The position numbers and the translations under genes were made by a program. Under the pieces are notes generated by a model, which searched no databases, was not told the DNA's origin, and saw nothing but the letters and a program-made list of their open reading frames with translations. A stretch of DNA of 64,000 nucleotides from an uncultured Bacilli bacterium (GTDB taxonomy: Bacteria > Bacillota_I > Bacilli_A > RF39 > UBA660): positions 4,771-68,770 of the forward strand of contig CAKPRO010000006.1 of assembly GCA_934182615.1 (NCBI GenBank). Direction: 5' to 3'. Below are positions 4,774 through 48,884 of this stretch, in pieces; the stretch's first letter is position 1, and each line of letters opens with the position of its first letter.

Positions 4774-5895
4774 CTACTTTTTCTTACATTTATTTAAAAC
4801 TATTAATGGTATCTTCATCTCATCTTCAGTTAAACCAGCATGAGTTGACTTATGAATATGACCAACATTCCTATATTTAAAATATTTATTACTATAGGCT
4901 AAAGCAAAATAATCTCCTAGTGAATCTCTAAAATATTTATGTTCAGTACCATTACCTAATAACTTACTATTAATAAGTTCTTCTTTAGTCATTAATACAA
5001 AATAATTACTAAAGTATTTATTAAATAGATAAACAAATTCTTCCTCTCTACCATCTTTTATTTTAAAACTACATAGTCTTCCTTCAAAAGACGTATCTCC
5101 AGCAAGAGTATCAAATATATCTTTATAATCTTCTAATATAATAGTATCACAATTAATATGACCATGATCCGCTACTACAATAAGTAATGTATCATCAGAT
5201 ATAGTATTATATAATTCTTCTACTTTTTTATTAATCAACTCAAAATAATCTCTAGTCTCTTTACTATCAGTACCAGTAATATGCATAGTAGTATCTGGTT
5301 CAGGATTATATACATAAATATAATTTTTATCTTTAACATTTAAACTACTTTTAATTTTATTTATCATATCATCAATATCTTCATATTTATTTTCATTAAA
5401 TGAAGCAATTAATTTAGCATAATGTTTTCCATCTTCATTTATTAATTCACAAATATCTTTATATGGAAAATATTTTCTAGCTAGTGATACACTATCAGCA
5501 TCTATATCAGTATCTTTAATTTTATTAGTAAACATTGTTACTATTTTATCCTCTTTTTTAAAATATAAATCCCAAGCAAGCCATCCATGTTCCACTGGTG
5601 TAAGACCAGTAAGCATTGATGTAGTTGAAGCAGTTGTAGTCGCTGGTACTACTGAAGATATTTCTTTTAACATATTTCTATAAAGAAAACTATTTTCTCC
5701 TAATAATTTTTTTATTAATCTTGATCCCATTCCATCAAATAATATAACTACTACATTTTTTGGTTTATATTCTTCTAATATTTTGTCAATATCACTTAAA
5801 GTATTATGATAGACATCAAGTTCAAAATATCTCCTAATACTAGATGCTAAACTAACAATACTATTATCATATTCTGGTAATATAAACTTATCCAT
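4774..5895 (-). CDS. Alkaline phosphatase superfamily protein (type I phosphodiesterase / nucleotide pyrophosphatase-like)
   Basis: Motifs VVILFDGMGSRL, TTASTTSMLTGLTPVEHGW and VVADHGH. Likely start is MDKFILPEY at 5895, after AAGGAAGTGG. The track start at 5949 is a TTG inside the terminator hairpin. Confidence 0.7.
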   Translation of the reverse strand: MDKFILPEYDNSIVSLASSIRRYFELDVYHNTLSDIDKILEEYKPKNVVVILFDGMGSRLIKKLLGENSFLYRNMLKEISSVVPATTTASTTSMLTGLTPVEHGWLAWDLYFKKEDKIVTMFTNKIKDTDIDADSVSLARKYFPYKDICELINEDGKHYAKLIASFNENKYEDIDDMINKIKSSLNVKDKNYIYVYNPEPDTTMHITGTDSKETRDYFELINKKVEELYNTISDDTLLIVVADHGHINCDTIILEDYKDIFDTLAGDTSFEGRLCSFKIKDGREEEFVYLFNKYFSNYFVLMTKEELINSKLLGNGTEHKYFRDSLGDYFALAYSNKYFKYRNVGHIHKSTHAGLTEDEMKIPLIVLNKCKKK

Positions 5896-6145: not shown

Positions 6146-6253
6146 TAACATTTACAACCGAGATCATTTATTGCTCGCACCACCCGGAAGCGATTAACAT
6201 TTCACAACTAGGATCATTTATTGCTCGCACCACCTAGAAGCGATTAACATTTA
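6146..6253 (-). repeat. Tandem direct repeat, two units of about 50 nt plus a partial unit
   Basis: Units run 6146-6194 and 6195-6244, with a partial third. Each unit has a 5 bp stem whose two copies differ by compensatory changes (minus strand CUAGG/CCUAG versus CCGGG/CUCGG). The stem encloses an identical 20 nt loop UGGUGCGAGCAAUAAAUGAU. Confidence 0.7.
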
Positions 6254-6293
6254 TATTAAAGTATTCTTCTAAATACTTCTTAAAATATATTTT

Positions 6294-6358
6294 ATCATAG
6301 AGACTACAGGCTCTATGATACCTAATGAAGACTTAAGATTAACTTAAGGCTTCATAGG
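6294..6358 (+). repeat. Twin-hairpin repeat, inverted-orientation variant (copy 3)
   Basis: Plus strand reads AUCAUAGAGACU-aca-GGCUCUAUGAUACC-UAAUGAAGACU-uaagauuaacuuaa-GGCUUCAUAGG. It ends 4 nt from the ABC exporter stop (6362). Confidence 0.7.
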
Positions 6359-6361
6359 CAA

Positions 6362-8092
6362 TTATGAATTTAAAGATTCAGTCTCATAAAGATTTCTATA
6401 TATCTTACAACTATTTAATAATTCCTTATGTGTGCCCGTTGCTATTACCTTACCACCATCAACAACATGAATAATATCAGCATCCATAATCGTAGATAAT
6501 CTATGAGCCACTATTACAATAGTATGATCATTAACTAAATTATCAATAGTCTTCTTAATATAATCTTGAGAATTATTATCTAAAGCTGAAGTAGCTTCAT
6601 CAAATAAAATCACTTCACTACCCTTAGATAAAGTTCTAGCAATAGATAGTCTTTGTTTTTGACCACCAGATAAATTAATACCAGACTCTCCTAATACAGT
6701 ATCATACCCTTTAGGTAAAGACATAATATAATCATCTAAATAAGCCATCTTAGAATATTCTCTTATCTTCTTAAGAGATATATTCTTATTAATTAATTTA
6801 AAATTTTCTTTAATAGTTCTATTAAAAACAAAAGGTTCCTGTCTAATTATTGATATATGTTTTCTTAATTCATCTTCACTTAAGTCTTTAATATTAATAC
6901 CATCTAACAATATCTCCCCACTAGTAGTATCAAATATTCTAGTAATTAAGTTAAATAAAGTACTCTTACCCTGACCAGAAGCTCCTACTACAGCAATCTT
7001 CTTATTAGGTTCAATCTTTAAACTAAAATTATTTAATATATTACCCTCATCAGGATAATTAAAATTAACATCTTTAAATTCAATTACCCCTTTAACATTA
7101 ACTAACTTCTTATTGCCAAACTCTTCATCTTTATATAATCTATTCTCTAATATATCATTTACTCTTGATATAGATACACTAACCTTCTGATATGTCTGAG
7201 TTAAGTCATTAATATTCTCTATTAACCAAGTAAACCTATATACATAATAAGTCATAGCAATAAAAAAAGTTAAACTAATCATCTTATAATATAATAATAT
7301 AACACAAGTAGCAAATACTCCGCATTCTAATATAGATTTTAATAATCTAGTCTTTATATTAAAACTCTTCTGAATATCAATCTCTTTACTAGATTTATTA
7401 TATATATCCTTAATAATACTAGTCATATCACTAATTAAATTATTTTTAATACCTAATGTTTTAATTTCTCTTATACCTCTAATAGACTCCGTAGTTAAAG
7501 AAGTAAACTTATCTTGCTCTTTTCTTCTCTCTTTATGTATATCTTTAAGTAATGGATTATATTTCTTTAATATTAAGAATAATATTGAAACTATAAGTAG
7601 TATTTCTACTCCTACTATCCAAGAATTGATAAAAATATAGATTATGACAATTATTGATGCCACTAGTGATGATATCATATTAAGTAATCTACCAAAAGCA
7701 AAACTTAAAGTATCAGCATCACTTGTTATTCTGTTTATTATTTCTCCTGATGACATCTTTTCATAAGCAACTGAGGGTAAACATAATGCTTTCTTATAAG
7801 TATAAAATCCTAACTTTCTAGTTAACTTACTCTCTTCTTTATATAATATAGAATTAGCATAATGTAGTACTATTCCATCCATTGTTATTTCTAATACAAA
7901 ATATATTCCTAGGAATATTAAGGCATTCTTTATATCAAGTATAGTAATAAACTCTACTACTTTACCATTTAGGTAACCAGTAAAGACCTCACATATTCCA
8001 GATATAAATATTATGATACTTGCAAATATAAGTTTACTTAAATCTTCTTTAACTAATTTTAATAGAGGTTTAAATTCTTTTATACTCTTCAT
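6362..8092 (-). CDS. ABC exporter, fused permease-ATPase (MsbA/multidrug type)
   Basis: 576 aa with an N-terminal 6-TM region. Walker A GASGQGKST, signature LSGGQKQRLSIAR, Walker B ILFDEATSALD. Confidence 0.9.
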   Translation of the reverse strand: MKSIKEFKPLLKLVKEDLSKLIFASIIIFISGICEVFTGYLNGKVVEFITILDIKNALIFLGIYFVLEITMDGIVLHYANSILYKEESKLTRKLGFYTYKKALCLPSVAYEKMSSGEIINRITSDADTLSFAFGRLLNMISSLVASIIVIIYIFINSWIVGVEILLIVSILFLILKKYNPLLKDIHKERRKEQDKFTSLTTESIRGIREIKTLGIKNNLISDMTSIIKDIYNKSSKEIDIQKSFNIKTRLLKSILECGVFATCVILLYYKMISLTFFIAMTYYVYRFTWLIENINDLTQTYQKVSVSISRVNDILENRLYKDEEFGNKKLVNVKGVIEFKDVNFNYPDEGNILNNFSLKIEPNKKIAVVGASGQGKSTLFNLITRIFDTTSGEILLDGINIKDLSEDELRKHISIIRQEPFVFNRTIKENFKLINKNISLKKIREYSKMAYLDDYIMSLPKGYDTVLGESGINLSGGQKQRLSIARTLSKGSEVILFDEATSALDNNSQDYIKKTIDNLVNDHTIVIVAHRLSTIMDADIIHVVDGGKVIATGTHKELLNSCKIYRNLYETESLNS

Positions 8093-8325: not shown

Positions 8326-8356
8326 CCTTTTCTTGTTACATTTATTTTTTTATATG

Positions 8357-8413
8357 CCACTTCAGCCTATGGTCTTCCGTGGTATGATGAAGCCTACTTT
8401 AATCTTCATCATA
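8357..8413 (-). repeat. Twin-hairpin intergenic repeat, copy 4
   Basis: Minus strand reads UAUGAUGAAGAUU-aaagu-AGGCUUCAUCAUACC-ACGGAAGACC-aua-GGCUGAAGUGG. It overlaps the last codons and stop of the 8362-9270 ORF. Confidence 0.8.
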
Positions 8414-9270
8414 ACATTTTTTAGTTTATCTAATAATTCTTCTAATATATTATTATCTACTATCTTAGTAATAGCAAAACACTTTTTACCTAAATCTTTA
8501 AATGAAGCACCAGAATGATATAACACTTTATTATCTATTATAACAAACCTATCATGAAATATATTAGTATTTATTATTTCTATATTACTATATTGTTTTT
8601 CATACTTATCTTTAGAAATATTATCTATATTTTCTGTATATATTTTTACTTTAACATTAATATTTCTAATAATATCAAATAATTTTTTACCAGCATAATT
8701 ATCTATTATAATTATTTCTTTCTTTGCTTTAGATAATATATCTATAAGTAATGAATATGCATCATATATCTGTCCTTCATAAAAAATATGATTATTACTT
8801 TCTTTTGAAGTTAATTTATCTAGTATTAAATTAATTTTACTATCGTGTTCTAATACTAATTTGTTAATATATTTTTGTTCTATCAGTGAAGTATTTATTA
8901 TCTTTTTCATTACTACGAATGCATCCATTATTGCAATTGTTATCTTCGTTGCTTCTTTACTTTTTAAGATTGTAGCAAGCATATATACACCTTGCTCGGT
9001 AAAAACTCTGGGATTTTTATACTTACCTCCATGTTTTTCTATTTTTTGGTCGAAAATTTCGACCAAAAGATTATCACTTTCGTTATCGGAAAGTTTAAAG
9101 CAATATCTTTCGGGAAACTTTTCTATATTATTTTTAACTGCTTCATTTATTCTTTTTGTTTCTACATTATAGAGTTTAGCCAAATCAGAATCTAACATTA
9201 CTTTTTTACCTCTAATTTCATATATCATATTTTCTATCTTTATATTATTGCTTACCATTATATTGTTCAT
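8362..9270 (-). CDS. ORF6N (KilA-N-like) domain protein
   Basis: N-terminus IENMIYEIRGKKVMLDSDLAKLYNVETKRINEAVKNNIEKFPERYCFKL is typical of the ORF6N domain. Likely start is MNNIMVSNN at 9270. The C-terminal ~17 aa are encoded by the repeat element. Confidence 0.7.
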   Translation of the reverse strand: MNNIMVSNNIKIENMIYEIRGKKVMLDSDLAKLYNVETKRINEAVKNNIEKFPERYCFKLSDNESDNLLVEIFDQKIEKHGGKYKNPRVFTEQGVYMLATILKSKEATKITIAIMDAFVVMKKIINTSLIEQKYINKLVLEHDSKINLILDKLTSKESNNHIFYEGQIYDAYSLLIDILSKAKKEIIIIDNYAGKKLFDIIRNINVKVKIYTENIDNISKDKYEKQYSNIEIINTNIFHDRFVIIDNKVLYHSGASFKDLGKKCFAITKIVDNNILEELLDKLKNVMMKIKVGFIIPRKTIG

Positions 9271-10372: not shown

Positions 10373-10385
10373 TATACCTCCTTTT

Positions 10386-10442
10386 CCACTTCAGCCAGTA
10401 GTCTTCCGTGGTATGATAAAGCCTATTCTAGTCTCTATCATA
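10386..10442 (-). repeat. Twin-hairpin intergenic repeat, copy 5
   Basis: Minus strand reads UAUGAUAGAGACU-agaau-AGGCUUUAUCAUACC-ACGGAAGACU-acu-GGCUGAAGUGG. The upstream stop TGA (10438-10440) lies inside the conserved UAUGA. It is followed by AAAAGGAGG and the ATG at 10372. Confidence 0.85.
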
Positions 10443-10932
10443 AAATCTTATTTATTATTTTTATACTTATCTTTTTATCATTAACATAATAATGAATATC
10501 ATTATCATTAATATTCTTCAAATATATACTTCTTCCTATTGGACTATTTAAAGATACCTCTTTAATTTTAACATTATTATCTATCATATATTTACCAGTT
10601 AATTTAATAGTATATTCTTCGATATCATCTATATCATATATAACTTTTATTTTAAGAATATCTCCTACATCTATTATATCATCAAAATTACTTTTTTTAT
10701 CTACTATTTTTAAATATTTTTCATCCTCTAACATTTTATTTATTCTTGAAGCAATCTTTCTACTTTCCCTCATTGTATCTTCAAAAGCAAAATTATCATG
10801 CCATCCATCTCCTACTGCATCAGCATAGGATTCACTTCCTATGCTGGCAATAGATAAACTTATATCTTTTAATCTATTTAATTCTTCATAATACTGATTA
10901 AATCCATCAGTATCTACTAATACATCTTTCAT
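10438..10932 (-). CDS. GreA/GreB-family-like protein
   Basis: The C-terminal segment EVSLNSPIGRSIYLKNINDND resembles the GreA C-terminal domain (IS..SPLG.ALLGK). The N-terminal DGWHDNFAFEDTMRE is coiled-coil-like. Confidence 0.5.
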   Translation of the reverse strand: MKDVLVDTDGFNQYYEELNRLKDISLSIASIGSESYADAVGDGWHDNFAFEDTMRESRKIASRINKMLEDEKYLKIVDKKSNFDDIIDVGDILKIKVIYDIDDIEEYTIKLTGKYMIDNNVKIKEVSLNSPIGRSIYLKNINDNDIHYYVNDKKISIKIINKIL

Positions 10933-15998: not shown

Positions 15999-16002
15999 AA
16001 TA

Positions 16003-16059
16003 TTTTCTTTAACCTCTTCAACCTGTAGTCTTCCGAGGTATGATGAAGCCTATTCTAGT
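16003..16059 (-). repeat. Twin-hairpin intergenic repeat, copy 6
   Basis: Minus strand reads UAUGAGGAAGACU-agaau-AGGCUUCAUCAUACC-UCGGAAGACU-aca-GGUUGAAGAGG. It ends 4 nt before the ATG region of the 15998 gene. Confidence 0.8.
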
Positions 16060-16148
16060 CTTCCTCATAATATTTTTTTGGTTAATGTCAATATATCATA
16101 TAAAATAGCCAAAGGCAATAATATATTGTTTTTTAAAGAAAATAAGTA

Positions 16149-20685: not shown

Positions 20686-20739
20686 CCCCTTCAGCCTGTA
20701 GTCTTCCGGGGTATGAGCAAGCCTAAAGTCTTGCTCATA
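20686..20739 (-). repeat. Twin-hairpin intergenic repeat, copy 7
   Basis: Minus strand reads UAUGAGCAAGACU-uu-AGGCUUGCUCAUACC-CCGGAAGACU-aca-GGCUGAAGGGG. Confidence 0.8.
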
Positions 20740-20776
20740 TATTTTAGCATATTAAAAGTGAATCATTAAAATTCAC

Positions 20777-26556: not shown

Positions 26557-27903
26557 CTAACTTGGTTGTCCTGTAGTTACTGTTACTGCATTGTATGTAG
26601 TACTTCCTATTGTTTTAGCATTAGTAGTACCTGTTACAAATGTTGTACCTGAACTTCCATTTACTGCTTTATTCCAGTCAAACGCCTTACCAGAATTATT
26701 ATATATGATTTTTAAATTGGGATTATTTATATATTCTACACCAGCAAAAGAAGATCCAGTGTCATTCGAAGTTTCAAAAGCACTACCGGATATACTTGAT
26801 AAATTAGAACCATAATCTATTAATACATAATCCAAATTGTTATTCATAAATGCACCATAGCCTATATCAATTACTGGAGCCGGTATAATAACATCTGTTA
26901 ATTTGTTATAAGCAAATGCGTAACTATCTATTGTGGTCAATGAATTTGATAGTGTAACACTCACCAAATTATTTGACGTAAAAGATTGTTCTCCAATAGA
27001 TAATATTGTGTTAGGCATTATAACACTTGAAATATTAGTGGATTGACTGCAACTATTACCTCCAATCATAGAACTATAACTATATTCAGCACATGCAAAT
27101 CCTTCTTTTATTTTTGTTATTTTATACCCAGCAATAGTATCAGGAATAACTATATCATTAACTACTTTATATCCATTACTATTTCCTTCATAACAATTAT
27201 AACCAACTGAAGATAGTGATGCCGTTTTATTTGTTTCATCTTTATCAGTGATATTGAAACAATATTCAGGTGTAGGTTCTACATATTTACCTTGTTCTGC
27301 ATCAGCACTTATATTACCAATAAATGTTGCTGATGTTATACTATTACCTGCTAGGGCATTATCTACATAGATTACTACTAAATATTTATATATTTCTGTA
27401 TTAGATAATTGTTTGGTAAGTAGTGTTATAGTATCACTACTTGTAATACTACCAGTAGATACTATATCAAATGATTGATTAAGTAAAGAATCTACTGTTA
27501 CCGAAGATGGCGTTGTTATTGTACTAGTATTATCTAACACTACATACTTAAGTGCTCCTTTACTATCTCCAGTAGTAAATGCATCTGATATATTAGTTAC
27601 ATTTAAATATATAGAACCATATCCTTCAATAGTACAAGTAGACTTAATACCTATATTAACCGCTGATATACCTATTCCATTCTTAATAGTAAATTTATTA
27701 CTACTAATTAGATCTGATTCATTAAGTAATTTTAAATTACCACTTATATCTTGTCCTTTAGTATAATCTATAGTAAAACATCCACTTGTTAATCCTATAT
27801 TTATTTTACTACTCGTCCATGTTAGTATAGCGTATGTTAATCCCGATATAGCTAGTATTAATATTATTACTCCTAGTATTATTAATTTCTTTTTCTTTTC
27901 CAT
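26557..27903 (-). CDS. Surface protein with SipW-type signal and C-terminal BspA-like leucine-rich repeats
   Basis: Signal LAISGLTYAILTW. C-terminal LRR units include IPDTIAGYKITKI and SVTLSNSLTTIDSYAFAYNKLTDVIIP. Confidence 0.7.
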   Translation of the reverse strand: MEKKKKLIILGVIILILAISGLTYAILTWTSSKINIGLTSGCFTIDYTKGQDISGNLKLLNESDLISSNKFTIKNGIGISAVNIGIKSTCTIEGYGSIYLNVTNISDAFTTGDSKGALKYVVLDNTSTITTPSSVTVDSLLNQSFDIVSTGSITSSDTITLLTKQLSNTEIYKYLVVIYVDNALAGNSITSATFIGNISADAEQGKYVEPTPEYCFNITDKDETNKTASLSSVGYNCYEGNSNGYKVVNDIVIPDTIAGYKITKIKEGFACAEYSYSSMIGGNSCSQSTNISSVIMPNTILSIGEQSFTSNNLVSVTLSNSLTTIDSYAFAYNKLTDVIIPAPVIDIGYGAFMNNNLDYVLIDYGSNLSSISGSAFETSNDTGSSFAGVEYINNPNLKIIYNNSGKAFDWNKAVNGSSGTTFVTGTTNAKTIGSTTYNAVTVTTGQPS

Positions 27904-28003: not shown

Positions 28004-28066
28004 TTAGTTTTGTGCCCCCCCCCTAATTAACTTCTGGTTAACGTTTTTGCATAGTTCTTTATTCAT
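28004..28066 (-). CDS. Leader ORF 1 (20 aa as sequenced) containing the G9 tract
   Basis: SD AAAGGAGG, 9 nt, then the ATG at 28066. Translation is MNKELCKNVNQKLIRGGAQN-stop. With 8 or 11 G the frame continues to the TAG inside the 3' arm of the terminator. Confidence 0.5.
   Translation of the reverse strand: MNKELCKNVNQKLIRGGAQN
28015..28023 (-). repeat. Homopolymeric G9 tract (C9 on plus strand)
   Basis: Counted directly. The equivalent tracts are G6 (44119-44124) and G10 (46190-46199) in the paralogous leaders. Confidence 0.9.
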
Positions 28067-35707: not shown

Positions 35708-35737
35708 AAAAATGTCAGTTAATTCTGACATTTTTTT
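35705..35737. terminator. Bidirectional terminator between convergent lexA and the 35736 gene
   Basis: AAAAAATGTCAG-ttaatt-CTGACATTTTTTT. Confidence 0.75.
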
Positions 35738-37403
35738 AATCTTCTTTTTTATATAAAGTAACTATTTCTACTCTACTACTATTAATAGTACTAGGCTCAA
35801 ATCCAGTTTGAGGAGGCATTATATCACCAGTACCAGTATTCTTATCATAGTAGTAAGTAACATATATTGTACCATCAATATATTCTCCACTAGTAGGTCC
35901 TTCTACCATAATAAATGTATATCCATCAAATTCTTTCTTAACAGTAGTATATTCATTACCTACTTTATCAGTAATAGTTATTTCATCAGTTAGTTTATTA
36001 CCATCACTATCTACATAATTAATAACTACAGTACCTTCCTTAATAGAATACGTAAATTGCATATTAACCATAAAGTCAAAACCAATATAAGAGTTTGGGG
36101 TATATCTACCAATATTCTTTAGTACACCTGATATAGTAGAAGTACTACTACTCTTAAGAATACCAGCACGTTCTGATATTTCACTATTACCTTTAGATTC
36201 ATCTCTCATATATGAACCTATAGAATAATCAGTACCAGTAACATTACTATTACTTAAATCTTTATTTTCTTTATATTCACCAGTATTCTCATCCTTTTCG
36301 TCAAAGTAGAAAGATAATCCTTCATTATAGAAATAATTGTATGCAAGTGCTAATACAGTACTATTTGTTTCAGTAGCAAAATCATAACCACCATCTTCAG
36401 TTCCACCAAAGCCAAATAAATCGTTAACAGCTGTTTCATTTAATTCAGATAAATTATTTGCTATACATTCACCATTACAATTAAATTTGTCATTATTATT
36501 ATAGAAATATAATAAATATTGTACTGGACTAGTAAATTCAGTATTTTTAATAGCAGTATCAATCGCCTTTTTAGCAGTATTATATCTTCTCAAATCTATC
36601 ATATCTAATCCAAGCGCAGCATATGCTGAATTATATGCATAAATAGGATCAGTATCAGATAGTATCTCTCTAATTATACCTTTTGAAAAAGAATCTAATC
36701 TACTATAATTAGTATTATATTTTTTATTATAAAAATCTAATAAATATTTAGCATAATCTTCTATTCCATTATAACCATTTTCTTTTAAAGCCTCATCAAT
36801 ATTTTCATCAGTCATATTTCTACCTGAAGAATTAGGCACAAGTTCTTTAAGAGCTGTATTATAATTTCTTCTAAAAGTAAAACCATTAGGTATATCTATT
36901 TGATTAAAGAATTTATCTCCAGTATTTCCTTCTACTTTATCATATACTACAGGTTCAGTCGGAAATATTTCAAAAGAAGTATCATCAAAGTAATAATCAT
37001 TTTTAGAATAATTATTTATAACAATATTAACTCTAATTTTATCCCCTGATTGAAATGGATTTGAATATTGAATATTATCTTCATCAATACGTTCATATCC
37101 TATTTTTTTATTGTAATCATATACTGCTTTTGCTATTTTTTGAAATACTTCAGGAGCAATAACGATACTTTTTTCATTATAATTTTCTGTAAGTGTTATA
37201 TTAACAGTAACAGCACCACCTATATACCAACCAAATTTTATCTTTGATAAATCATATTCTACTATAAAATTATCATTAGATTCAGAAACTAATTTTTCTG
37301 GATTAATTGTATCCCACTTAGATTCTGCTAAAACAGTAGAATTAAACATTAACCCTATTACTAAAACTAGTAATAATCTGCTTATTTTTTTCATTCTATT
37401 CAC
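35736..37403 (-). CDS. Secreted surface protein with C-terminal MucBP-like domain and PPQTG tail
   Basis: Signal peptide ..NSTVLAESK. The C-terminus reads VVINYVDSDGNKLTDEITITDKVGNEYTTVKKEFDGYTF..NTGTGDIMPPQTGFEPSTINSSRVEIVTLYKKED. Confidence 0.7.
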   Translation of the reverse strand: MNRMKKISRLLLVLVIGLMFNSTVLAESKWDTINPEKLVSESNDNFIVEYDLSKIKFGWYIGGAVTVNITLTENYNEKSIVIAPEVFQKIAKAVYDYNKKIGYERIDEDNIQYSNPFQSGDKIRVNIVINNYSKNDYYFDDTSFEIFPTEPVVYDKVEGNTGDKFFNQIDIPNGFTFRRNYNTALKELVPNSSGRNMTDENIDEALKENGYNGIEDYAKYLLDFYNKKYNTNYSRLDSFSKGIIREILSDTDPIYAYNSAYAALGLDMIDLRRYNTAKKAIDTAIKNTEFTSPVQYLLYFYNNNDKFNCNGECIANNLSELNETAVNDLFGFGGTEDGGYDFATETNSTVLALAYNYFYNEGLSFYFDEKDENTGEYKENKDLSNSNVTGTDYSIGSYMRDESKGNSEISERAGILKSSSTSTISGVLKNIGRYTPNSYIGFDFMVNMQFTYSIKEGTVVINYVDSDGNKLTDEITITDKVGNEYTTVKKEFDGYTFIMVEGPTSGEYIDGTIYVTYYYDKNTGTGDIMPPQTGFEPSTINSSRVEIVTLYKKED

Positions 37404-37456: not shown

Positions 37457-39166
37457 TTAATCTTCTTTTTTATATACAGTAATAACTTCTACTCTACTAC
37501 TATTAATAGTACTAGGCTCAAATCCAGTTTGAGGAGGCATTATATCACCAGTACCAGTATTCTTATCATAATAGTAAGTAACATATATTGTATCAAAATC
37601 ATATTCTCCACTAGTAGGTCCTTCTACCATAATGAATGTATAATCATCAAATTCTTTCTTAATAGTAGTATATTCACTACCTACTTCACCAGTAATAGTA
37701 ACTTCTTCAGTTAATTTATTACTATCACTATCTAAATAGTTAATAACTACTTTACCAATATTATCATGAGCAGCCTTAATAGCTAAAGCACCAGCTATTT
37801 CTCCATCTTCAGTAACTGAAGTATATTCTCCACCTTCAATTAAATCAATATGAAGATTCTCTTTATCATGTGCTTCCCATCTACTATTTTCAGCATCATC
37901 GTACCAACCATTTATTTTATGTTCACAATCATCAAGAATCCAATCTTCTCCTACATTACTAAAAGTAACAGTACCAATATTATAGATATCATCACCAGCT
38001 AATCTAGCATGATTGTTATATAATTTAACATTCTTACTAATTGTCATAATACCAGTATTATAAATACCACCACCATATTGAGGAATCATTTTTCCATCAA
38101 TAGTAACTAAACCATTATTCATAATCTCAGTCATACTACCAACATAAACTTCACCTCTATTAGTAATGCCTCTTGTATAATTATTATTAATTTTTACAGT
38201 AGCATTATCTTCAAAAACTACTTTAGCATTTCCATAGTAATTAGCAATGTTAATAGTAGCTCCATTATATTTACCAACAGAATCAAGTCCTCTACCAAAA
38301 CCATTACCAGTCATATTTAAAGTACCATTATCTTTAATTCTAACTTCACCACCATATTGCCAAATACCAACACTACTATTATTATTAATATTTAATGTTG
38401 TACCTTCATTAACAATAACATAATCTAATTCATATAAAGTAAAACCAATTTCATTACTACTATAGTCAGCAGTACTACCATTCTTAAGTTCTAATCTTCC
38501 ACCAACAAGTCCTTGTCTAGCACAATCAGTAACTGAAATATGTGAGTTATCTGCAGTTATATCAAACCAATTTGTACCATTACCAGCACTTGAATTACTA
38601 ATATCACTTATCTTAAGTAATGAATTATTAAATAAATTAATATAAGCATATTTATCTTCAACATCACCTTGCATAAATGCAGTATAAGTCATATCTTTAG
38701 CTATTAATTTAGAATTATTTAAGTTAATAGTAGCTTCTGGAGAAGCATATAAGCCATGTATTCTTAGTGTATATGTTGAATCATTTAAATTAAGTACACC
38801 AGTTGAAGACATATAAACACTCCAAGCATTTTGATTATCATTATCATTAGCATGATCTACAGTAACATTATTTAAAGTAACATTACTTGAAATACTAAGT
38901 CTGCCATCATCACTAGGTAACTTAGAAATAGTAATAGTTTTATTATTACCATTAATTGTAATACTATTATTTATTGCAATAGTAGTTTCAATAGAAGCAT
39001 CATTGATAAGTTCAATAACATCACCATCTTTAGCCTCTTCAATAGCGGCATCTAATGTATTATATTCATTATCCCCTATTTTAGCAGTTACTTCTTCTGC
39101 TTTAACACCAGTAATACAAAAACATAGAGATATTAAAGCAAGTAAAAATAATTTTGTTTTTTTCAT
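37457..39166 (-). CDS. Secreted surface protein (beta-helix-like repeats) with C-terminal MucBP-like domain and PPQTG tail
   Basis: Signal peptide ..CITGVKAEEV. The central region is Asn/Gly-rich and repetitive. The last ~95 aa are nearly identical to 35736-37403. Confidence 0.7.
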   Translation of the reverse strand: MKKTKLFLLALISLCFCITGVKAEEVTAKIGDNEYNTLDAAIEEAKDGDVIELINDASIETTIAINNSITINGNNKTITISKLPSDDGRLSISSNVTLNNVTVDHANDNDNQNAWSVYMSSTGVLNLNDSTYTLRIHGLYASPEATINLNNSKLIAKDMTYTAFMQGDVEDKYAYINLFNNSLLKISDISNSSAGNGTNWFDITADNSHISVTDCARQGLVGGRLELKNGSTADYSSNEIGFTLYELDYVIVNEGTTLNINNNSSVGIWQYGGEVRIKDNGTLNMTGNGFGRGLDSVGKYNGATINIANYYGNAKVVFEDNATVKINNNYTRGITNRGEVYVGSMTEIMNNGLVTIDGKMIPQYGGGIYNTGIMTISKNVKLYNNHARLAGDDIYNIGTVTFSNVGEDWILDDCEHKINGWYDDAENSRWEAHDKENLHIDLIEGGEYTSVTEDGEIAGALAIKAAHDNIGKVVINYLDSDSNKLTEEVTITGEVGSEYTTIKKEFDDYTFIMVEGPTSGEYDFDTIYVTYYYDKNTGTGDIMPPQTGFEPSTINSSRVEVITVYKKED

Positions 39167-42497: not shown

Positions 42498-44009
42498 CTA
42501 GGATATATGTAAATTATATGGACTACCACTAGTACCATCACCACTACTTATAGATACATCTTTATCTAAATATACTGTTGGATATACATAAGTTCCGTTT
42601 GAATATGCATAAGCAGATCTTAATTGTCCATCTGAAGCCAAGCGAAAAAGAGAAGTTTTATCATAAGCAAGTATAGCTAATAACCACTTATAATCACCAG
42701 TATAAAGCCAATTATTACTCCTACACTCATAATTATTATTACTACTATTATAATTATAAATAGTAAGACCATTACATTTACTAAGATCTGCTGCATAACC
42801 ATAATCACTTGGAGATGCTAAAGCAACGTAACCATTCCATTCAGTATCATTTCCTGCATAAACGTTACCAGATACTCTCTCAGTATTATAATAAACATTA
42901 GGAAACATATCAATAGAAGTTGTGCCTCTTAAGTACCAAGTACTTTCACTTATCATATTTCTAGTAGTGTCATTTTTTAAACCAATGTTACCCATATTAC
43001 ACGTACTAATATTATCAACTGAAGTCGCACCAGAATAGCAACTACCATCTTGCCTATTCCAATATAAACTGCCACCATATTCACTTTCATAATTTGGATT
43101 TAATAATTTCATAAGTCTAGAAGATGGCCAATTACTATTTCCAGTAGTAGCAACATTACCACTATTATCCCAAGAATAAATTCCAATATTATCTTTTCTT
43201 ACAATTTTTACTTTACCATCAACAATACCAATAATTCTCCATAATTCACAAGTACTTGAAGATTGATTACCATAATTATCACAATTAAAATAAACATAAT
43301 TATTAGGATTAGCACCATAATACCTAATATTACCACTTGCATCTGTCATTAGACCATTAGATTCAGTATATTGATAATTAATATTATTATTAATAACAAT
43401 TTTTTTAGAATCATTCTTATTTAATCTTTTAATCTTATAAATAATAGAATTAGAATATATTTCATCATCTATAACTTTCATTGAAGCCTCACACCTAACA
43501 GTAGCACTAATAGTAGCATCCTCTGCTGAAGAAGCATTTTCAACAGTTTCATCAAACCACAAGTATACAGTATACATAGTAGTAGTAGCTTTCAAAGGAA
43601 TATTAACTGCTAATAAATAAGATTCATTTGAAGAAACACCACCTAAAGTACCTTCCGATATTTTACTAGTCCCCTCTACTACAACATACTTTAAAGCATT
43701 ACTACCACTAAGAGCAGAACTAATTTTTGTAATATCTAAATATATATGGCCATATATATCATAAGTATTATCTTTTTTATACAAAGATATATCTATACTA
43801 TTTCCACCAGTATATTCAGTACTTGGATTTAAAATACTCGATGTAATATCAGTTCCTTTTGTATAATTAATATAATAATCCAAACCCTTAGTAATAGTAT
43901 TAACATTAACCGAAGCAAGTACATATTTATAATAAGCATAAGTACTTCCAACTATCGAAATAATTAATACAGTAATTCCAAATATCATATATATTTTATA
44001 TTTATTCAT
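42498..44009 (-). CDS. Secreted protein with SipW-type signal peptide
   Basis: Signal IISIVGSTYAYYKY. The N-terminal domain is shared with the 25995 and 26557 proteins (ALKYVVVEG, YTVYLWF). Likely start is the ATG at 44009. The track GTG at 44021 is the SD. Confidence 0.65.
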   Translation of the reverse strand: MNKYKIYMIFGITVLIISIVGSTYAYYKYVLASVNVNTITKGLDYYINYTKGTDITSSILNPSTEYTGGNSIDISLYKKDNTYDIYGHIYLDITKISSALSGSNALKYVVVEGTSKISEGTLGGVSSNESYLLAVNIPLKATTTMYTVYLWFDETVENASSAEDATISATVRCEASMKVIDDEIYSNSIIYKIKRLNKNDSKKIVINNNINYQYTESNGLMTDASGNIRYYGANPNNYVYFNCDNYGNQSSSTCELWRIIGIVDGKVKIVRKDNIGIYSWDNSGNVATTGNSNWPSSRLMKLLNPNYESEYGGSLYWNRQDGSCYSGATSVDNISTCNMGNIGLKNDTTRNMISESTWYLRGTTSIDMFPNVYYNTERVSGNVYAGNDTEWNGYVALASPSDYGYAADLSKCNGLTIYNYNSSNNNYECRSNNWLYTGDYKWLLAILAYDKTSLFRLASDGQLRSAYAYSNGTYVYPTVYLDKDVSISSGDGTSGSPYNLHIS

Positions 44010-44076: not shown

Positions 44077-44184
44077 ATTTATATTATTATTTATTATACT
44101 TAGATTAGATTTTTGAATCCCCCCAACACGTACAAAGGTACTAGTTAACAAGTGGCTAACTTTCGTTATTTTTCTCTCGTTCAT
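44032..44184 (-). CDS. Leader ORF 2 (50 aa, open frame through the terminator)
   Basis: SD GAGGAGGTG then ATG at 44184. Translation is MNERKITKVSHLLTSTFVRVGGIQKSNLSIINNNINKDYEITNRSISIFS-stop. The stop TAG lies in the 3' arm of the terminator. Confidence 0.5.
   Translation of the reverse strand: MNERKITKVSHLLTSTFVRVGGIQKSNLSIINNNINKDYEITNRSISIFS
44119..44124 (-). repeat. Homopolymeric G6 tract
   Basis: Counted directly (C6 on the plus strand). Confidence 0.9.
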
Positions 44185-44328: not shown

Positions 44329-46083
44329 TTAACTAACAACTATAACATTAGTCAAATTACTAAAATTAGTATTAATCCATTGTTTCTCAGTATTACTTTT
44401 TACATATATTGCAGCATTATTTGGTATCATATAAAACATCATACTAACATTAGTCAGAGCACTTCCAAAAGTCATATTTCGCATATCGATAAGCATTAGT
44501 TTACTATCATAACTAAACATTGAACTCATATTAGTTACATTTGATGTATCAAAGCCACTTATATTCAGTTTAGTAAGTGATGTACAATACTGAAACATAT
44601 TAAGCATTGTCGTAACTTTAGAAGTATTAAAGTTACTTAAGTCTAACTCTTTAAGTGCATTACATTTTACAAATACTGCATTCATATTAGTCACATTTGA
44701 TGTATCAAAATTAGATAAGTCTATACTTTCTAACGAATTACAATTATAAAACATTTGATACATACTTGTGATTTTGGATGTATTAAAGCTAGATAAATTT
44801 ATACTTGTTAATTTATAACAATGAGCAAACATAACAGTCATATTAGCTACATTTGATGTATTGAAATTGCTTAAATTCAAATTCGTTAATGATTCACAAT
44901 GTGAAAACATACCTTCCATATTAATTACACTTAATGTATTAAAACTACTTATATTTAAGTCTGTAAGTGAAGTACAATATTTGAAAAGGTATTGCATATT
45001 CGTTACATTTGATGTATCAAAATTAGATAAATTCAAACTTTTTATTGAAATACAATTTGCAAACATATACTTCATATCTATTACACTTGATGTATCAAAA
45101 CTAGATAAATCTATGTTTCCCAAACTAACACAATCATTAAACATATAATATATATTTTTAACTTTAGAAGTATTAAAACTACTTACATTTACAGAGGTTA
45201 ATTTTGCACAACCATTAAATAATTCTTCCATACTGGTTACTTTACTTGTATCAAACATACTTAGATCCAAACTAACTACTGATTCACTTTTTTTAAACAT
45301 TTTTACCATATATGTAGTATTTGATGTATCAAAGCCAGTAAAATCCATAGAAATAGTATTAGTTAAATAACTAAAAAGTGAATAACAATTACTAGGAGCA
45401 TATACCTTTCCACTCTCGCCGCCTATATATACATTATATAAATTATCACTGCTTCCCTTTGTGTACCATAACATGACACTACCATCGCCATTTTGTGATA
45501 CATCAAAATTTCCTATAGCATCAGCTGGTACAATATTATCATTAGCTATTGTAAGTGTTTCTATAGTATTTCTAACTAAAGTTGTGCCAAGAAAGTTAGA
45601 AGTTGCACTAACACCACTTTCAGCATTTCTTAATGTATTTATTTGTTTAACTTTATTTTTTACTAAAGTAACACCACTTGGCACTATTAAGTCTCCACCA
45701 TTTTCATAACCCAATATCGTACTTAAAGTAACAGTACTACTTGTAGTTCCATTATTTATTAATTTTAATTTAACAAATTTATTTTCCCCATAATTTATTA
45801 ATCCAGTTTCTGCATCTTTAGTATCTTCATATACTTTGACATCTATATTAGTTCCAGAGTATCCAACTCCATATTTTACAATCCCTTTATTAGCATTATT
45901 CACTTTATAATATACTTTTTTTGATGTTCTAGCAGGTAATTCTATACTAGTACTATCATTAACATCTATTATATAAGTATCATTTTCACCACTAGCAACA
46001 CTGGAAATTGCAAAAGTTTGATATAAAAATCCTATTAGAACTAATATAACAATTGTCAATATAATAATTACTCTCTTTTTCAT
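44329..46083 (-). CDS. BspA-family leucine-rich repeat surface protein (DUF285-type 26-residue repeats)
   Basis: More than 10 repeats of the type F..C.SL.SLDLSNFDTSNVTNM..MF. N-terminal signal/anchor. Likely start is the ATG at 46083. The track GTG at 46095 is the SD. Confidence 0.85.
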   Translation of the reverse strand: MKKRVIIILTIVILVLIGFLYQTFAISSVASGENDTYIIDVNDSTSIELPARTSKKVYYKVNNANKGIVKYGVGYSGTNIDVKVYEDTKDAETGLINYGENKFVKLKLINNGTTSSTVTLSTILGYENGGDLIVPSGVTLVKNKVKQINTLRNAESGVSATSNFLGTTLVRNTIETLTIANDNIVPADAIGNFDVSQNGDGSVMLWYTKGSSDNLYNVYIGGESGKVYAPSNCYSLFSYLTNTISMDFTGFDTSNTTYMVKMFKKSESVVSLDLSMFDTSKVTSMEELFNGCAKLTSVNVSSFNTSKVKNIYYMFNDCVSLGNIDLSSFDTSSVIDMKYMFANCISIKSLNLSNFDTSNVTNMQYLFKYCTSLTDLNISSFNTLSVINMEGMFSHCESLTNLNLSNFNTSNVANMTVMFAHCYKLTSINLSSFNTSKITSMYQMFYNCNSLESIDLSNFDTSNVTNMNAVFVKCNALKELDLSNFNTSKVTTMLNMFQYCTSLTKLNISGFDTSNVTNMSSMFSYDSKLMLIDMRNMTFGSALTNVSMMFYMIPNNAAIYVKSNTEKQWINTNFSNLTNVIVVS

Positions 46084-46099
46084 TTTTGCCTCCACAAAA

Positions 46100-46149
46100 A
46101 AAGACTATGAAAAAGCACTAATACTTCTATTAGTTATTTCATAGTCTTT
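46100..46149 (-). terminator. Conserved leader terminator, copy 3
   Basis: Minus strand has AAAGACUAUGAAA-loop-UUUCAUAGUCUUU followed by UUUUGUG. Confidence 0.7.
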
Positions 46150-46172
46150 ATTTATATTATTATTTATTATAC

Positions 46173-46241
46173 TTAGATTAGATTTTTGACCCCCCCCCCA
46201 ATTAACTTGTGGTTAACTTTTATAAATAATACTTTTTCCAT
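46173..46241 (-). CDS. Leader ORF 3 (22 aa as sequenced) containing the G10 tract
   Basis: SD AAAGGAGG then ATG at 46241. Translation is MEKVLFIKVNHKLIGGGVKNLI-stop. With 8 or 11 G the frame continues to the TAG in the terminator 3' arm. Confidence 0.5.
   Translation of the reverse strand: MEKVLFIKVNHKLIGGGVKNLI
46190..46199 (-). repeat. Homopolymeric G10 tract
   Basis: Counted directly (C10 on the plus strand). Confidence 0.9.
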
Positions 46242-46258
46242 AAGAGGGGCCTCCTTTC

Positions 46259-46330
46259 TGATTTGCGAATTAATTGAGATCAAAACTCTCGAATTATTTA
46301 GAATCTTTTTGGTAAAATTTTGCAAATCAA
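46259..46330 (-). promoter_or_regulatory. Conserved imperfect palindrome / 5'-UTR stem-loop, copy 3
   Basis: TGATTTGCGAATTAATTGAGATC ... TTTTGCAAATCA. Confidence 0.55.
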
Positions 46331-46360
46331 TTATCAATATCTTTTCTATCTTACATATCA

Positions 46361-46389
46361 ATAATATCATAATTAATTTTAAAATGCAA
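46361..46389 (-). promoter_or_regulatory. Sigma-A type promoter with extended -10 (leader 3)
   Basis: Minus strand has TTGCAT, a 17 nt spacer ending in TGa, then TATTAT. Confidence 0.55.
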
Positions 46390-46465
46390 TATTAATTTTT
46401 AAATTATTTATTTACAATAAATATCATTTTTGTTATACTATATATAGAGAATAAGGAGGAACATT

Positions 46466-47173
46466 ATGAGTAATTATATAGAATTTCTAATGCAAATAAT
46501 AGTCTGTTTCTTACTTAGTGCTTGTATCGGTATTGAAAGACAATACCGAAGAAGATCAGTAGGATTAAGAACAATAATATTAGTAAGCCTAGGAGCCTTT
46601 CTTTTTACTAGATACTCCTATTCATTTCCTAATTCAGATATGAATAGAATAGCATCTCAAGTAGTCGCAGGTATCGGTTTTCTAGGAGCAGGAGTAATAA
46701 TAAAAGATGGTAAAGCTGTTAAAGGATTAACCACCGCAGCCACTTTGTGGTGTTCTGCTGCTATCGGAATATTATGTTCTGCCAACCTTCTAGTAGAAGC
46801 CATAACTGGTACCCTATTCATATTATTTACTAATATAATACTAAGAACAGTAAATAGTAAAATAAATCATTTAAGTGGCAATATCAATTATAACTTATAT
46901 AATTTCAGTGTAATTGCAGAAGAACATAAAGAAAAAGAAATAACTAGAATAATCAAAGATATCGTTAAAGAAAATAATAGTACTATTACTAATTTAGAAA
47001 TAAATGATACCGAAAATGGTAATATTAAAATAGACTTATGCGTTACTGTTGATTCTGATAATGATAATCTATCTAATGAAATGATGCAAAGATTATTAAA
47101 TAAAAAAGAAGTAATATCCATAAGTTTAAATAAAAAAGATAAAAGATTTTTATTTGAAGAAGAAGAATTATAG
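46466..47173 (+). CDS. MgtC/SapB family membrane protein
   Basis: 235 aa. N-terminal membrane domain with GIERQYRRRSVGLRT and GAGVIIKDG. Soluble C-terminal domain. Confidence 0.8.
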   Translation: MSNYIEFLMQIIVCFLLSACIGIERQYRRRSVGLRTIILVSLGAFLFTRYSYSFPNSDMNRIASQVVAGIGFLGAGVIIKDGKAVKGLTTAATLWCSAAIGILCSANLLVEAITGTLFILFTNIILRTVNSKINHLSGNINYNLYNFSVIAEEHKEKEITRIIKDIVKENNSTITNLEINDTENGNIKIDLCVTVDSDNDNLSNEMMQRLLNKKEVISISLNKKDKRFLFEEEEL

Positions 47174-47194
47174 AGATTACAAAAGTAATCTCTA
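47171..47194. terminator. Bidirectional hairpin between convergent mgtC-like gene and sigE
   Basis: TAGAGATTAC-aaaa-GTAATCTCTA. Confidence 0.55.
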
Positions 47195-47881
47195 TAATTT
47201 TATTATATTAGATAATTTTTTAATAACTTTCTTTTCAATTCTAGATATATAAGACTGTGATATTCCAAGTAAATTAGCTACTTCCTTCTGTGTCATTTCC
47301 TTTTTACCATTAAGTCCATATCTAAGTTCAATAATTTCTTTATCCCTTTTACCTAACTTATCTACTTCTTTATACATCAAATATTTATCAAGTTCATCTT
47401 CAATAGGCTTAGTAACAATATCTTCTTTAGTACCAAGAACATCTTCTAAATGAAGTTCATTACCTTCTGAATCAAAAGATAAAGAATCCTCAAATGATAC
47501 TTCAGTTCTTTTTTTCTTTGTTTTCCTAAGATACATAAGTATCTCATTATCTATACATCTAGAAGCATAAGTAGCAAGTTTAATATTCTTATCATTCTGA
47601 TAAGTATTAACTCCCTTAATTAATCCTATTGTCCCAATAGATACTAAATCTTCTAAATCTATCTTAGTATTTTCATATTTCTTAGCTAAAAATACTACTA
47701 ATCTAAGATTATGTTCTATAAGTTTATCCCTCGCATTCATATCACCATTTAAAAACATATTAACATATTTTTCTTCTTCTTCTTTACTAAAAGGTTCTGG
47801 TAATATATCTGTACTTCCTACAAAAAACAAATAATTAAGTTTACTAAATATTCTTCTAAGTAATTTAAGCATTCTCTTCAC
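47192..47881 (-). CDS. sigE: Sporulation sigma factor SigE (pro-sigma-E)
   Basis: Pro-sequence followed by YFVGSTDILPEPFSKEEE..HNLRLVVFLAKKYENT..ISIGTIGLIKGVNTY..KLATYASRCIDNEILMYLRK. Immediately downstream of spoIIGA. Confidence 0.85.
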   Translation of the reverse strand: MKRMLKLLRRIFSKLNYLFFVGSTDILPEPFSKEEEEKYVNMFLNGDMNARDKLIEHNLRLVVFLAKKYENTKIDLEDLVSIGTIGLIKGVNTYQNDKNIKLATYASRCIDNEILMYLRKTKKKRTEVSFEDSLSFDSEGNELHLEDVLGTKEDIVTKPIEDELDKYLMYKEVDKLGKRDKEIIELRYGLNGKKEMTQKEVANLLGISQSYISRIEKKVIKKLSNIIKL

Positions 47882-48618
47882 CCTTTCATAATATCTTTAT
47901 GTAATATAACATCTACTCCATCAATAAGTTTAGGACTATCAGAAAAACCTATTAAAATATTTCCCTTATACCCTATTCCATCAATAAATATAATATCTGG
48001 TTTAATACATTTAAGTAATCCTTCTCCACTCATAGTATAATAAGGAACTAATATATAATTATCTTCTCTAATATATTTATTAGATAATAATATAATAGGT
48101 CTCTTTTTATAAGGATCATATAAATTATTCCCCGTATCTACAAAACCTACTACTGATATCTTACTTTTATCTTTAAAATATATGTCTACCTTATAATAAT
48201 TATTATAAATATTTTTAATCTTTCTACTTTCTTTAATATATAATATTAAAACTAAACTACTAATAACAATTATAATAAAATAATTAATAAATATATTATT
48301 AGATACCTTAACATTAAATAAATATATAATACCCCCTATCAAAGTACTAAGTAAATACATATAAAATATATTTCTAAGTACATATTTAACTCCCTTATAT
48401 CCAAAAGATATAAGTACCATAATAATAATACTTATAACTTCAATTAATATCTTATTAATATTATTAAATAATAATACTGAAGAAATACCTCCTATCAAAG
48501 ATGAAATTATAATTCTAATAAGATTACTATTTCTCTTTAATATAATTGAAGTACCAAGTATAATCATAAAATCCATAATAGTATTAAACAAAAAAAATAA
48601 ATCAATATATATTCTCAT
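47878..48618 (-). CDS. spoIIGA: Sigma-E processing aspartic peptidase SpoIIGA
   Basis: MRIYIDLFFLFNTIMDFMIILGTSIILKR matches the SpoIIGA N-terminus. Has the VDTGN aspartic protease motif. The start is uncertain (48618 ATG or the 48669 GTG of the track). Confidence 0.8.
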   Translation of the reverse strand: MRIYIDLFFLFNTIMDFMIILGTSIILKRNSNLIRIIISSLIGGISSVLLFNNINKILIEVISIIIMVLISFGYKGVKYVLRNIFYMYLLSTLIGGIIYLFNVKVSNNIFINYFIIIVISSLVLILYIKESRKIKNIYNNYYKVDIYFKDKSKISVVGFVDTGNNLYDPYKKRPIILLSNKYIREDNYILVPYYTMSGEGLLKCIKPDIIFIDGIGYKGNILIGFSDSPKLIDGVDVILHKDIMKG

Positions 48619-48668
48619 ATATTGATTATAAAAAAAAGAATATAAATATCTTGTCGATTTATATTCCA

Positions 48669-48884
48669 CTATTCAAATAATTTATTCTCATCTCCAGAGC
48701 AATAGCCACCGCCTACTTTAGCACCTTCAACATATTCCTTACCAGAAATATTACATCCCATCTTAGTAACAGCATCTTGTAAATATCCTCCAAAGATTTT
48801 TACTAATCCTATTGCTACTACTGTAATTAAAGATATAATAAGTACATATTCTACTAATGTTTGACCTTTTCTATTCAACTTCAT
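48669..48884 (-). CDS. Flp-family (type IVb) prepilin-like protein
   Basis: MKLNRKGQTLVEYVLIISLITVVAIGLV matches the class III signal G/(Q)TLVEY motif plus a hydrophobic helix. Likely start is at 48884. Confidence 0.6.
   Translation of the reverse strand: MKLNRKGQTLVEYVLIISLITVVAIGLVKIFGGYLQDAVTKMGCNISGKEYVEGAKVGGGYCSGDENKLFE

Follow-up and report, generated by a model that had tools for sequence, protein, structure and literature searches.

Background

Classical homopolymer phase variation is exemplified by the Neisseria genes pilC and porA. Phase variation of cwpV in Clostridioides difficile is brought about by a recombinase that inverts a DNA segment, so that a terminator in the 5' leader is formed or not formed, and pyrBI of Escherichia coli is preceded by a ribosome-occlusion attenuator that responds to physiology through nucleotide-dependent pausing. 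Homopolymer phase variation has also been described for the intragenic G tracts of pilus genes of Bifidobacterium breve (PMC9187656). In the pil1 and pil3 loci of Streptococcus gallolyticus, a leader open reading frame (ORF) containing GCAGA repeats is located on the 5' side of a terminator hairpin (Danne et al. 2014, PMC3894217). Leader peptides that end about 28-39 nucleotides (nt) before the hairpin go with low pilus transcription, frame-shifted longer peptides that end within or after the hairpin go with high transcription, and ribosome-mediated antitermination is supported by mutants of the start codon and the stop codon and by deletion of the terminator (PMC3894217). In E. coli, ribosomes that stop near a terminator repress it (PMC4824070). 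A leader assembled from such parts is found at positions 46,084 to 46,389, on the minus strand, of a 64,000-nt stretch of contig CAKPRO010000006.1 from an uncultured Bacilli bacterium (hereafter, the window): it possesses a short ORF with its own ribosome-binding site (RBS), a length-variable repeat within that ORF, a terminator, and a stop position that depends on the reading frame, which are among the properties that define the pil1/pil3 type.

This leader is the third (copy 3) of exactly three that nhmmer detects in the window. It probably functions as a phase-variable transcription attenuator, in which slipped-strand changes in the length of a G10 homopolymer would be converted by ribosome-mediated antitermination into switching of the surface-protein gene that follows.

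The window has a G+C content of approximately 25%, and its minus strand carries nearly all of the genes and is also the strand on which the leader is oriented. Genes for SigE, a sigma factor of sporulation, and for SpoIIGA, the protease that processes it, adjoin the copy 3 leader (47192-48669, minus strand). The host appears to be an uncultured gut bacterium with a small genome of 25% G+C, and its relatives have been labelled 'Tenericutes'. An alternative genetic code with TGA as tryptophan was considered and rejected.

Organization of the copy 3 leader

From its promoter to the gene under its putative control (the cargo gene), copy 3 comprises the following features, among them an upstream ORF (uORF) and a conserved module of the 5' untranslated region (UTR) that ends in a sequence designated the box.

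46389-46361, minus strand: predicted sigma-A promoter, from reading of the sequence (-35 TTGCAT at 46389-46384, 17-nt spacer, extended -10 TGaTATTAT at 46369-46361)
46330-46259, minus strand: conserved 5' UTR module (UUGAUUUGC at 46330-46322, partial box copy GATTCTAAATAATTCGAGAG at 46305-46286, box GATCTCAATTAATTCGCAAATCA at 46281-46259)
46255-46173, minus strand: RBS and uORF in the G10 frame (AGGAGG at 46255-46250, AUG at 46241, UAA at 46175-46173, 22 codons)
46199-46190, minus strand: G10 homopolymer within the uORF, the mutable element (C10 on the plus strand)
46149-46096, minus strand: intrinsic terminator (two-tier hairpin at 46149-46100 and U7 at 46102-46096)
46093-44329, minus strand: cargo gene (GGAGG at 46093-46089, AUG at 46083), encoding a PARCEL/DUF285-repeat surface protein of 584 amino acids

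Transcription would start at about 46354-46352, and the 5' UTR is approximately 100 nt long with the box at its end. The motif TGnTAYTAT is present at the matching relative position in copies 1 and 2 and also in most related loci; a simple promoter scan chose a neighbouring pair of hexamers rather than the TTGCAT/TGaTATTAT pair. The box is invariant across the three window copies, and its 3' part, GCAAAUCA(G), shows complementarity to UUGAUUUGC. A longer ORF of 65 amino acids at 46173-46370 had been dismissed in the original prediction as an artefact of in-frame upstream sequence, rightly so because its AUG falls within the extended -10 element predicted here and precedes the probable start of transcription.

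The AUG of the uORF is separated from AGGAGG by 8 nt, and 14 codons precede the G10 tract; the product at this tract length is MEKVLFIKVNHKLIGGGVKNLI, ending at the stop codon. The tract is followed by two UAA stops, at 46180-46178 and at 46175-46173, each in a different frame, and then by an AT-rich spacer. The G10 frame ends at 46173, before the hairpin, as had been claimed from the sequence at the outset; the gap had been given as 24 nt and is 23 nt when measured to 46149, a value that depends on where the 5' arm is taken to start. With G9 or G12 the uORF stops at 46178. The further claim that G8 or G11 would extend the frame to the UAG of the terminator is also correct, and this stop (46107-46105) is in the 3' arm of the hairpin. 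The tract is 106 nt on the 5' side of the cargo AUG and approximately 160 nt on the 3' side of the predicted -10 element, in a separate ORF; it is located neither inside the regulated coding sequence nor between the -35 and -10 elements. Runs of at least eight G's occur in two places in the window, both of them leaders (five overlapping matches, compared with 0.16 expected from shuffled sequences).

Directly on the 5' side of the G run, most leaders have the sequence GTTAAC-N5-GTTAAY (for example at window positions 46219-46203, and in the related loci designated L038, L040 and L047). GTTAAC is palindromic, so GTTAAC-N5-GTTAAY could form a small hairpin, and it is kept at the nucleotide level, including the third codon position of AAC, in a genome that is AT-rich. 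Several leader families (L004, L045, L115) lack it, and therefore it is not essential.

The arms of the copy 3 terminator hairpin (46149-46137 and 46112-46100) enclose an inner hairpin of 7 base pairs, and the predicted folding energy is -20.7 kcal/mol (z = -6.8, RNAfold). RNAfold was used for this purpose, as a simple terminator scan misses the hairpin, which has a loop of more than 8 nt and an AT-rich stem. The cargo protein matches DUF285 of Pfam (8.7e-63) and TIGR02167 of NCBIfam (1.4e-101), and has an N-terminal hydrophobic segment that may be a signal or an anchor. No family in Rfam 15 accounts for the leader: at the gathering score the matches in the window are two transfer RNAs elsewhere, and at E<=10 the interval 45900-46500 gives nothing beyond chance matches of microRNA and small nucleolar RNA families to the hairpin. 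A known structured RNA family was rejected on these grounds as the identity of the leader.

Proposed switching mechanism

The promoter looks constitutive, and the first translated element of its transcript would be the short leader ORF containing G10. Slipped-strand mispairing during replication would lengthen or shorten the run by one G and thereby shift the leader frame. With G9 or G10, the ribosome would halt 23-28 nt before the terminator, the hairpin would form, most transcripts would end at the U-run, and the cargo gene would be OFF. With G8 or G11, the ribosome would cross the 5' arm and the loop and stop at the UAG of the 3' arm, where it would block the hairpin, allow read-through, and turn the cargo gene ON. 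The assignment of the long frame to the ON state is made by analogy, on the view that long-frame translation suppresses termination. Copy 3, with G10, is thus predicted to be OFF. Surface proteins are the usual targets of phase variation, and the genes controlled here encode surface proteins.

Variation of tract length between samples

Relatives of the leader were sought in species-representative genomes with an 18-mer of the box as query, and in metagenomes with the pattern of the box followed by at least seven G's. In the species-representative genomes, true relatives were confined to L004, L010, L013, L014 and L026, which are uncultured low-G+C Bacilli and 'Tenericutes' metagenome-assembled genomes; the other matches were due to chance. 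The metagenome scan returned 79 loci, 76 of which are real leaders; most of them come from assemblies of the human gut, and 45 distinct 5' halves are represented. Ten gut-metagenome contigs (L027-L036) were obtained by an exact look-up of the copy 3 cargo protein. All tract lengths are consensus values of metagenome assemblies made from Illumina data, and the comparisons are between samples. A phage-borne element was rejected, since all four viral-contig matches to a 17-mer were chance matches in unrelated DNA.

Among contigs that encode the identical cargo protein of 584 amino acids and have identical flanks, three have a copy 3 tract of G9, two of G10 and three of G11; G10 is also found, on a different version of the leader, in the window and in one other contig. 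Differences in tract length (G7-G11) were found in nine of the 15 groups of leaders with identical flanks. In 665 kilobases of related DNA, each of the 91 runs of at least seven G's is within such a leader. A 51-amino acid uORF has been annotated by the gene caller in the G11 contigs alone. The length of the tract in the DNA itself differs between samples, which is enough for heritable switching. Slippage of RNA polymerase or of the ribosome on the G run could instead mix the frames within each cell and set a level of leakage that is graded and not heritable, and transcriptional slippage is possible at long homopolymers. Such slippage is best documented at A/T runs and could add to the proposed mechanism without replacing it; as the whole explanation it is very unlikely.

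The other two copies in the window have the same parts in the same order:

44271-44009, minus strand: leader copy 2 (extended -10 at 44271-44263, box at 44216-44204, hairpin at 44076-44027, cargo AUG at 44009)
44184-44032, minus strand: copy 2 uORF in the long frame (AUG at 44184 to UAG at 44034-44032, 50 codons; interrupted tract G6+AT at 44124-44119)
42498-44009, minus strand: copy 2 cargo gene, encoding 503 amino acids of no known family
28180-27903, minus strand: leader copy 1 (extended -10 at 28180-28172, box at 28102-28090, hairpin at 27975-27929, cargo AUG at 27903)
28066-28004, minus strand: copy 1 uORF in the short frame (AUG at 28066 to UAA at 28006-28004; G9 at 28023-28015)
26557-27903, minus strand: copy 1 cargo gene, encoding a BspA-type leucine-rich repeat (LRR) protein of 448 amino acids

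Each of the three possesses a strong RBS and AUG, a tract, early stops in two frames, a hairpin with a U-run, and a cargo RBS. In copy 2 the tract is interrupted (G6+AT), and for this reason the copy is predicted to be locked ON. This tract is invariant, as 11 of 11 other contigs also carry G6, and the 50-amino acid ORF was annotated by the gene caller in ten of ten contigs. Non-mutable G6 leaders in general are in the long frame (12 of 12, from two independent origins). Copy 1, with G9, is predicted to be OFF; with G8 or G11 its frame would continue to the UAG at 27936-27934 in the 3' arm of the hairpin. A search with the exact copy 1 cargo protein found no match in the public collection, and a look-up of the neighbouring CAP-domain protein led to one more copy 1 leader, again with G9. 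Among the three examples of this locus (the window, L048 and L120), all G9, no tract polymorphism was seen; the L120 contig contains only about the first 280 nt of the cargo gene.

Conservation of the frame layout

Of 47 distinct leaders, 43 have a single frame that enters the hairpin by 6 nt or more and two frames that end 10 nt or more short of it; in each of the three window copies, too, exactly one frame reaches the hairpin. An SD-like (Shine-Dalgarno-like) motif and AUG are present in 45 of the 47. The short-frame stops are 10-48 nt before the hairpin (median 27), and the long-frame stop is always within the hairpin, 7-46 nt beyond the point where the 5' arm starts. This layout holds over hairpins and spacers of several unrelated sequence families: 13 further hairpins from other leader families, at the same position and of unrelated sequence, have energies of -11 to -26 kcal/mol, and each leader hairpin ends in five to eight U's. 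The chance of a layout of one long and two short frames is 0.07-0.31 per leader, which over five conservative families gives P = 0.009. L105, with G7, is the only leader of the main family without any frame reaching the hairpin; a 2-nt insertion in its spacer closes the long frame, and it looks like a locked-OFF or decayed switch.

The position of the long-frame stop bears on the possibility of an effect on translation alone, whereby termination would be weak and ribosomes in the long frame would unwind the hairpin and arrive near the cargo start, to act there by coupling or reinitiation. The long frame does end 10-22 nt on the 5' side of the cargo AUG in copies 1-3. Over 38 leaders, however, the distance from this stop to the cargo start is 21-101 nt (median 38), too far and too variable for reinitiation, and what is constant is that the stop is in the hairpin. 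The cargo RBS is outside the hairpin, and the U-runs are those that intrinsic terminators have. Reinitiation coupling was down-weighted on the basis of the distances, and a purely translational effect is improbable.

A switch of RNA structure independent of translation could also be sensitive to tract length, if the G run paired with the C-rich GGAGGCCCCUCUU beside the leader AUG, or with GAUCYC of the box, and its length tuned the RNA fold or the binding of a factor. The minimum free energy fold of the whole leader indeed pairs the G run with CCCC after the RBS and with the region before the box (z = -4.1), and many leaders have a pyrimidine-rich spacer between RBS and AUG. The C-rich spacer and GATCCC are absent from several leader families (L004, L045, L051, L096, L102, L115) in which tract, terminator and frame layout are nevertheless retained, and a structural switch would predict none of the three-fold periodicity, the early stops in two frames, or the strong RBS and AUG; this explanation is decidedly improbable.

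Several considerations weigh against the phase-variable attenuator. In Bacillus subtilis, transcription is reported to proceed uncoupled from translation, a condition under which ribosome-mediated antitermination would be weaker; experiments in S. gallolyticus and L. lactis show the mechanism to be effective in Firmicutes. Exactly one open frame is found in 40-55% of shuffled spacers, and the frame statistic alone is modest. The leaders are related by descent, and their independence is hard to define, as single-linkage clustering over-merges the AT-rich spacers. The ratio of long to short frames among mutable leaders is 16:48, near the 1:2 that a random phase would give, and nothing indicates that either state is selected among them. 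In five loci (L043, L066, L069, L077, L080) the upstream RBS and AUG have been lost and the tract still varies between G8 and G9; in these the AUG abuts the tract (AACAUGGGGGGGG) and two successive hairpins with U-runs are present, and the variant may be either decaying or using an unusual mode of initiation. Tract lengths derived from assemblies are exposed to the errors of Illumina data at long G runs, about which caution has been advised (PMC9187656).

A portable cassette with exchangeable parts

The description of the leader as a portable regulatory cassette is upheld by box-bearing leaders that accompany unrelated cargo genes in three other genomes and at no fewer than 76 additional loci from metagenomes; further copies do exist beyond the window, and the leader is conserved in relatives. 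The cargo of box-bearing leaders includes PARCEL/DUF285 proteins, BspA-type LRR proteins, a type IV pilin-like protein, a lipoprotein and proteins of no known family. A prepilin-type N-terminus was verified for the L037-type cargo only, and SipW-type signal peptides, which had been considered for the cargo, were not supported by any NCBIfam match on the N-termini. From the tract to the cargo RBS, copies 2 and 3 are 96% identical over 101 nt, in agreement with their near-identity noted initially, and their cargo proteins are unrelated, as also noted (BLASTP E=2.9, not significant). The cargo proteins of copies 1 and 2 have in common an N-terminal module of approximately 130 amino acids (37% identity), beyond which they diverge completely. 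This divergence and the absence of the copy 1 cargo from the collection hint that cargo genes are highly variable between strains.

The suggestion that the leaders are kept similar by recombination or selection gains from mosaic leaders at the copy 3 locus. In eight of the nine leader-bearing contigs with identical copy 3 cargo (L028-L035), approximately 80 nt from the box to the tract are the copy 2 version, which amounts to the exchange of leader sequence between loci of related strains that was to be looked for. Outside this patch, on the 5' side up to and including the box and on the 3' side from the tract onwards, the contigs do not differ from the window. The patch is the 5' part of the uORF (MNERKITKVSHLLTSTFVRV... 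in copy 2, MEKVLFIKVNHKLI in the window). The distance between AUG and tract is 60 nt in the former and 42 nt in the latter; each is divisible by three, so that the exchange preserves the frame logic. On the evidence of this clean mosaic at copy 3, parts of the cassette appear to be exchanged between loci by recombination.

The G runs might also be recombination scars or assembly noise in a functionless repeated intergenic element, with a uORF present by chance; the spacers are short, and one open frame is common by chance. Against this, the RBS, AUG, tract and terminator are conserved over the 45 distinct 5' halves and several unrelated hairpins, runs of at least seven G's are found in leaders alone, G6 tracts are invariant whereas longer ones are polymorphic, and patch exchange preserves the frame. 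It is extremely unlikely that the element has no function.

The box and the uORF with its terminator are separable modules, because L013 (box at 5366-5383, minus strand) and L026 (box at 7023-7040) have a box directly before the cargo gene without uORF, tract or terminator, and L100 (position 11656) has a uORF with G10 and no box. L026 has three tandem copies of the box. A profile search of all loci with nhmmer found only three divergent boxes, but the search patterns that had returned the loci contained a fixed box sequence. Only about half of 51 distinct relatives have a stretch of 8-10 nt complementary to the box, which is above the level in shuffled sequences. The sole inverted repeat, UUGAUUUGC / GCAAAUCAA, which encloses 8-74 nt of the 5' UTR, is never flipped among approximately 100 recovered leaders, and these have one internal order throughout. 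An invertible-DNA switch of the cwpV or fimS type was rejected, as none of the recovered leaders has the other orientation.

It is conceivable, though unlikely, that the box (GATCYCAAWTAATTCGCAAATCA), often duplicated and often able to form a stem with UUGAUUUGC, is recognized by a dedicated trans-acting factor that gates all of the stochastic switches of a genome simultaneously, or serves as a homology anchor for frequent gene conversion. As an anchor, the box together with the identical segment from tract to terminator could allow uORF patches to be copied from locus to locus, and with them switch states or locked states; if true, this would add a recombinational layer of variation over slippage.

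Other repeats in the window

An element of approximately 75 nt with two hairpins is present in six copies on the minus strand (about 373-445, 2772-2856, 8344-8428, 10373-10457, 16000-16084 and 20686-20760). Its sequence is UAUGAKGAAGACUA..UAGGCUUCAUCAUA, then CCACGGAAGACUACAGGCUGAAGUGG, with compensatory changes at five base pairs between copies. Three of the copies are directly on the 5' side of the RBS and AUG of the next gene; the genes downstream encode GNAT acetyltransferases, a hexapeptide transferase, an ABC exporter and an AMP-binding enzyme. The element has no match in Rfam and could be an undescribed cis-regulatory RNA or a repeat similar to repetitive extragenic palindromic (REP) sequences or miniature inverted-repeat transposable elements (MITEs). 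A similar sequence in the opposite orientation (GGTATCATAGAGCCTGTAGTCTCTATGATA...) is found at about 6290-6358 (minus strand), an orientation more in keeping with a mobile palindromic repeat than with a strand-specific riboswitch.

Two tandem units of 50 nt, G+C-rich for this genome, are located at 6151-6250 between an ABC exporter gene and the next gene. They form hairpins with the common loop UGGUGCGAGCAAUAAAUGAU and compensating stems (CUAGG/CCUAG versus CCGGG/CUCGG), and have no Rfam match at E<=1. The segments 35736-36035 and 37457-37756, which are the 3' ends (approximately 100 codons) of adjacent minus-strand genes for proteins of 555 and 569 amino acids, are 91% identical in DNA sequence, suggesting that these neighbouring paralogues have recently undergone duplication or conversion.

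Implications

In the literature searched, the two pilus loci of S. gallolyticus are the only cases of phase variation in which a leader peptide bearing a repeat acts together with a terminator; the searches returned no description of a homopolymer version, nor of the mechanism outside that species. In uncultured low-G+C Bacilli of the human gut, a portable cassette of this kind precedes many unrelated surface-protein genes, and its different predicted switch states are visible in public metagenomes. Surveys of phase variation that are confined to repeats in genes and promoters would miss such switches, and gene callers annotate or drop the uORF according to tract length. The design can be searched for in general, as an RBS and AUG, a homopolymer, two staggered stops and a terminator, and may provide a natural system in which to ask how tightly ribosomes trail RNA polymerase in these bacteria.

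Comparison with known systems

The tracts of classical homopolymer switches resemble those described here in having 9-12 G's, in changing by one nucleotide, in their surface-protein targets and in the gut commensal context. They are located in the gene or in the promoter spacer, whereas copy 3 has its tract in a separate ORF of 22 codons that would act through a terminator. The coding sequence of the cargo needs no repeat, which makes the switch portable. Like pyrBI, the window leaders have a leader ORF that crosses an intrinsic terminator, where a ribosome close behind the polymerase would prevent the hairpin; the input to pyrBI is physiological, and that to the window leaders would be a heritable frameshift. 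With cwpV they would have in common phase variation by way of the leader terminator of a surface-protein gene in a Firmicute, but they possess no invertible segment and no adjacent recombinase gene, and a homopolymer frameshift would take the place of both.

The correspondence with pil1 and pil3 extends to the order of the parts (promoter, RBS and repeat-bearing leader ORF, intrinsic terminator, gene for a surface structure), to the stability of the hairpins (-18.7 and -28.2 kcal/mol, compared with -20.7 for copy 3), to the stop of the short peptide about 28-39 nt before the hairpin (23-28 nt in copy 3) and of the long peptide within it, and to a host among gut-associated Firmicutes. The repeats of pil1 and pil3 are approximately 13-22 GCAGA units instead of a G homopolymer, and one short frame is converted to a long one by out-of-frame changes, whereas the window leaders have two short frames (predicted OFF) and one long frame (predicted ON). 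Also unlike pil1 and pil3, the window leaders belong to a multi-copy cassette (three in 64 kilobases) with unrelated cargo and an extra box in the 5' UTR, their copies exchange patches, and one is a locked derivative. The likeness is claimed for the mechanism and not for descent, between loci studied by mutation and leaders known from sequence alone. The principle is already known from pil1 and pil3; what is most likely new here is its construction from a G homopolymer, in a multi-copy cassette that recombines.

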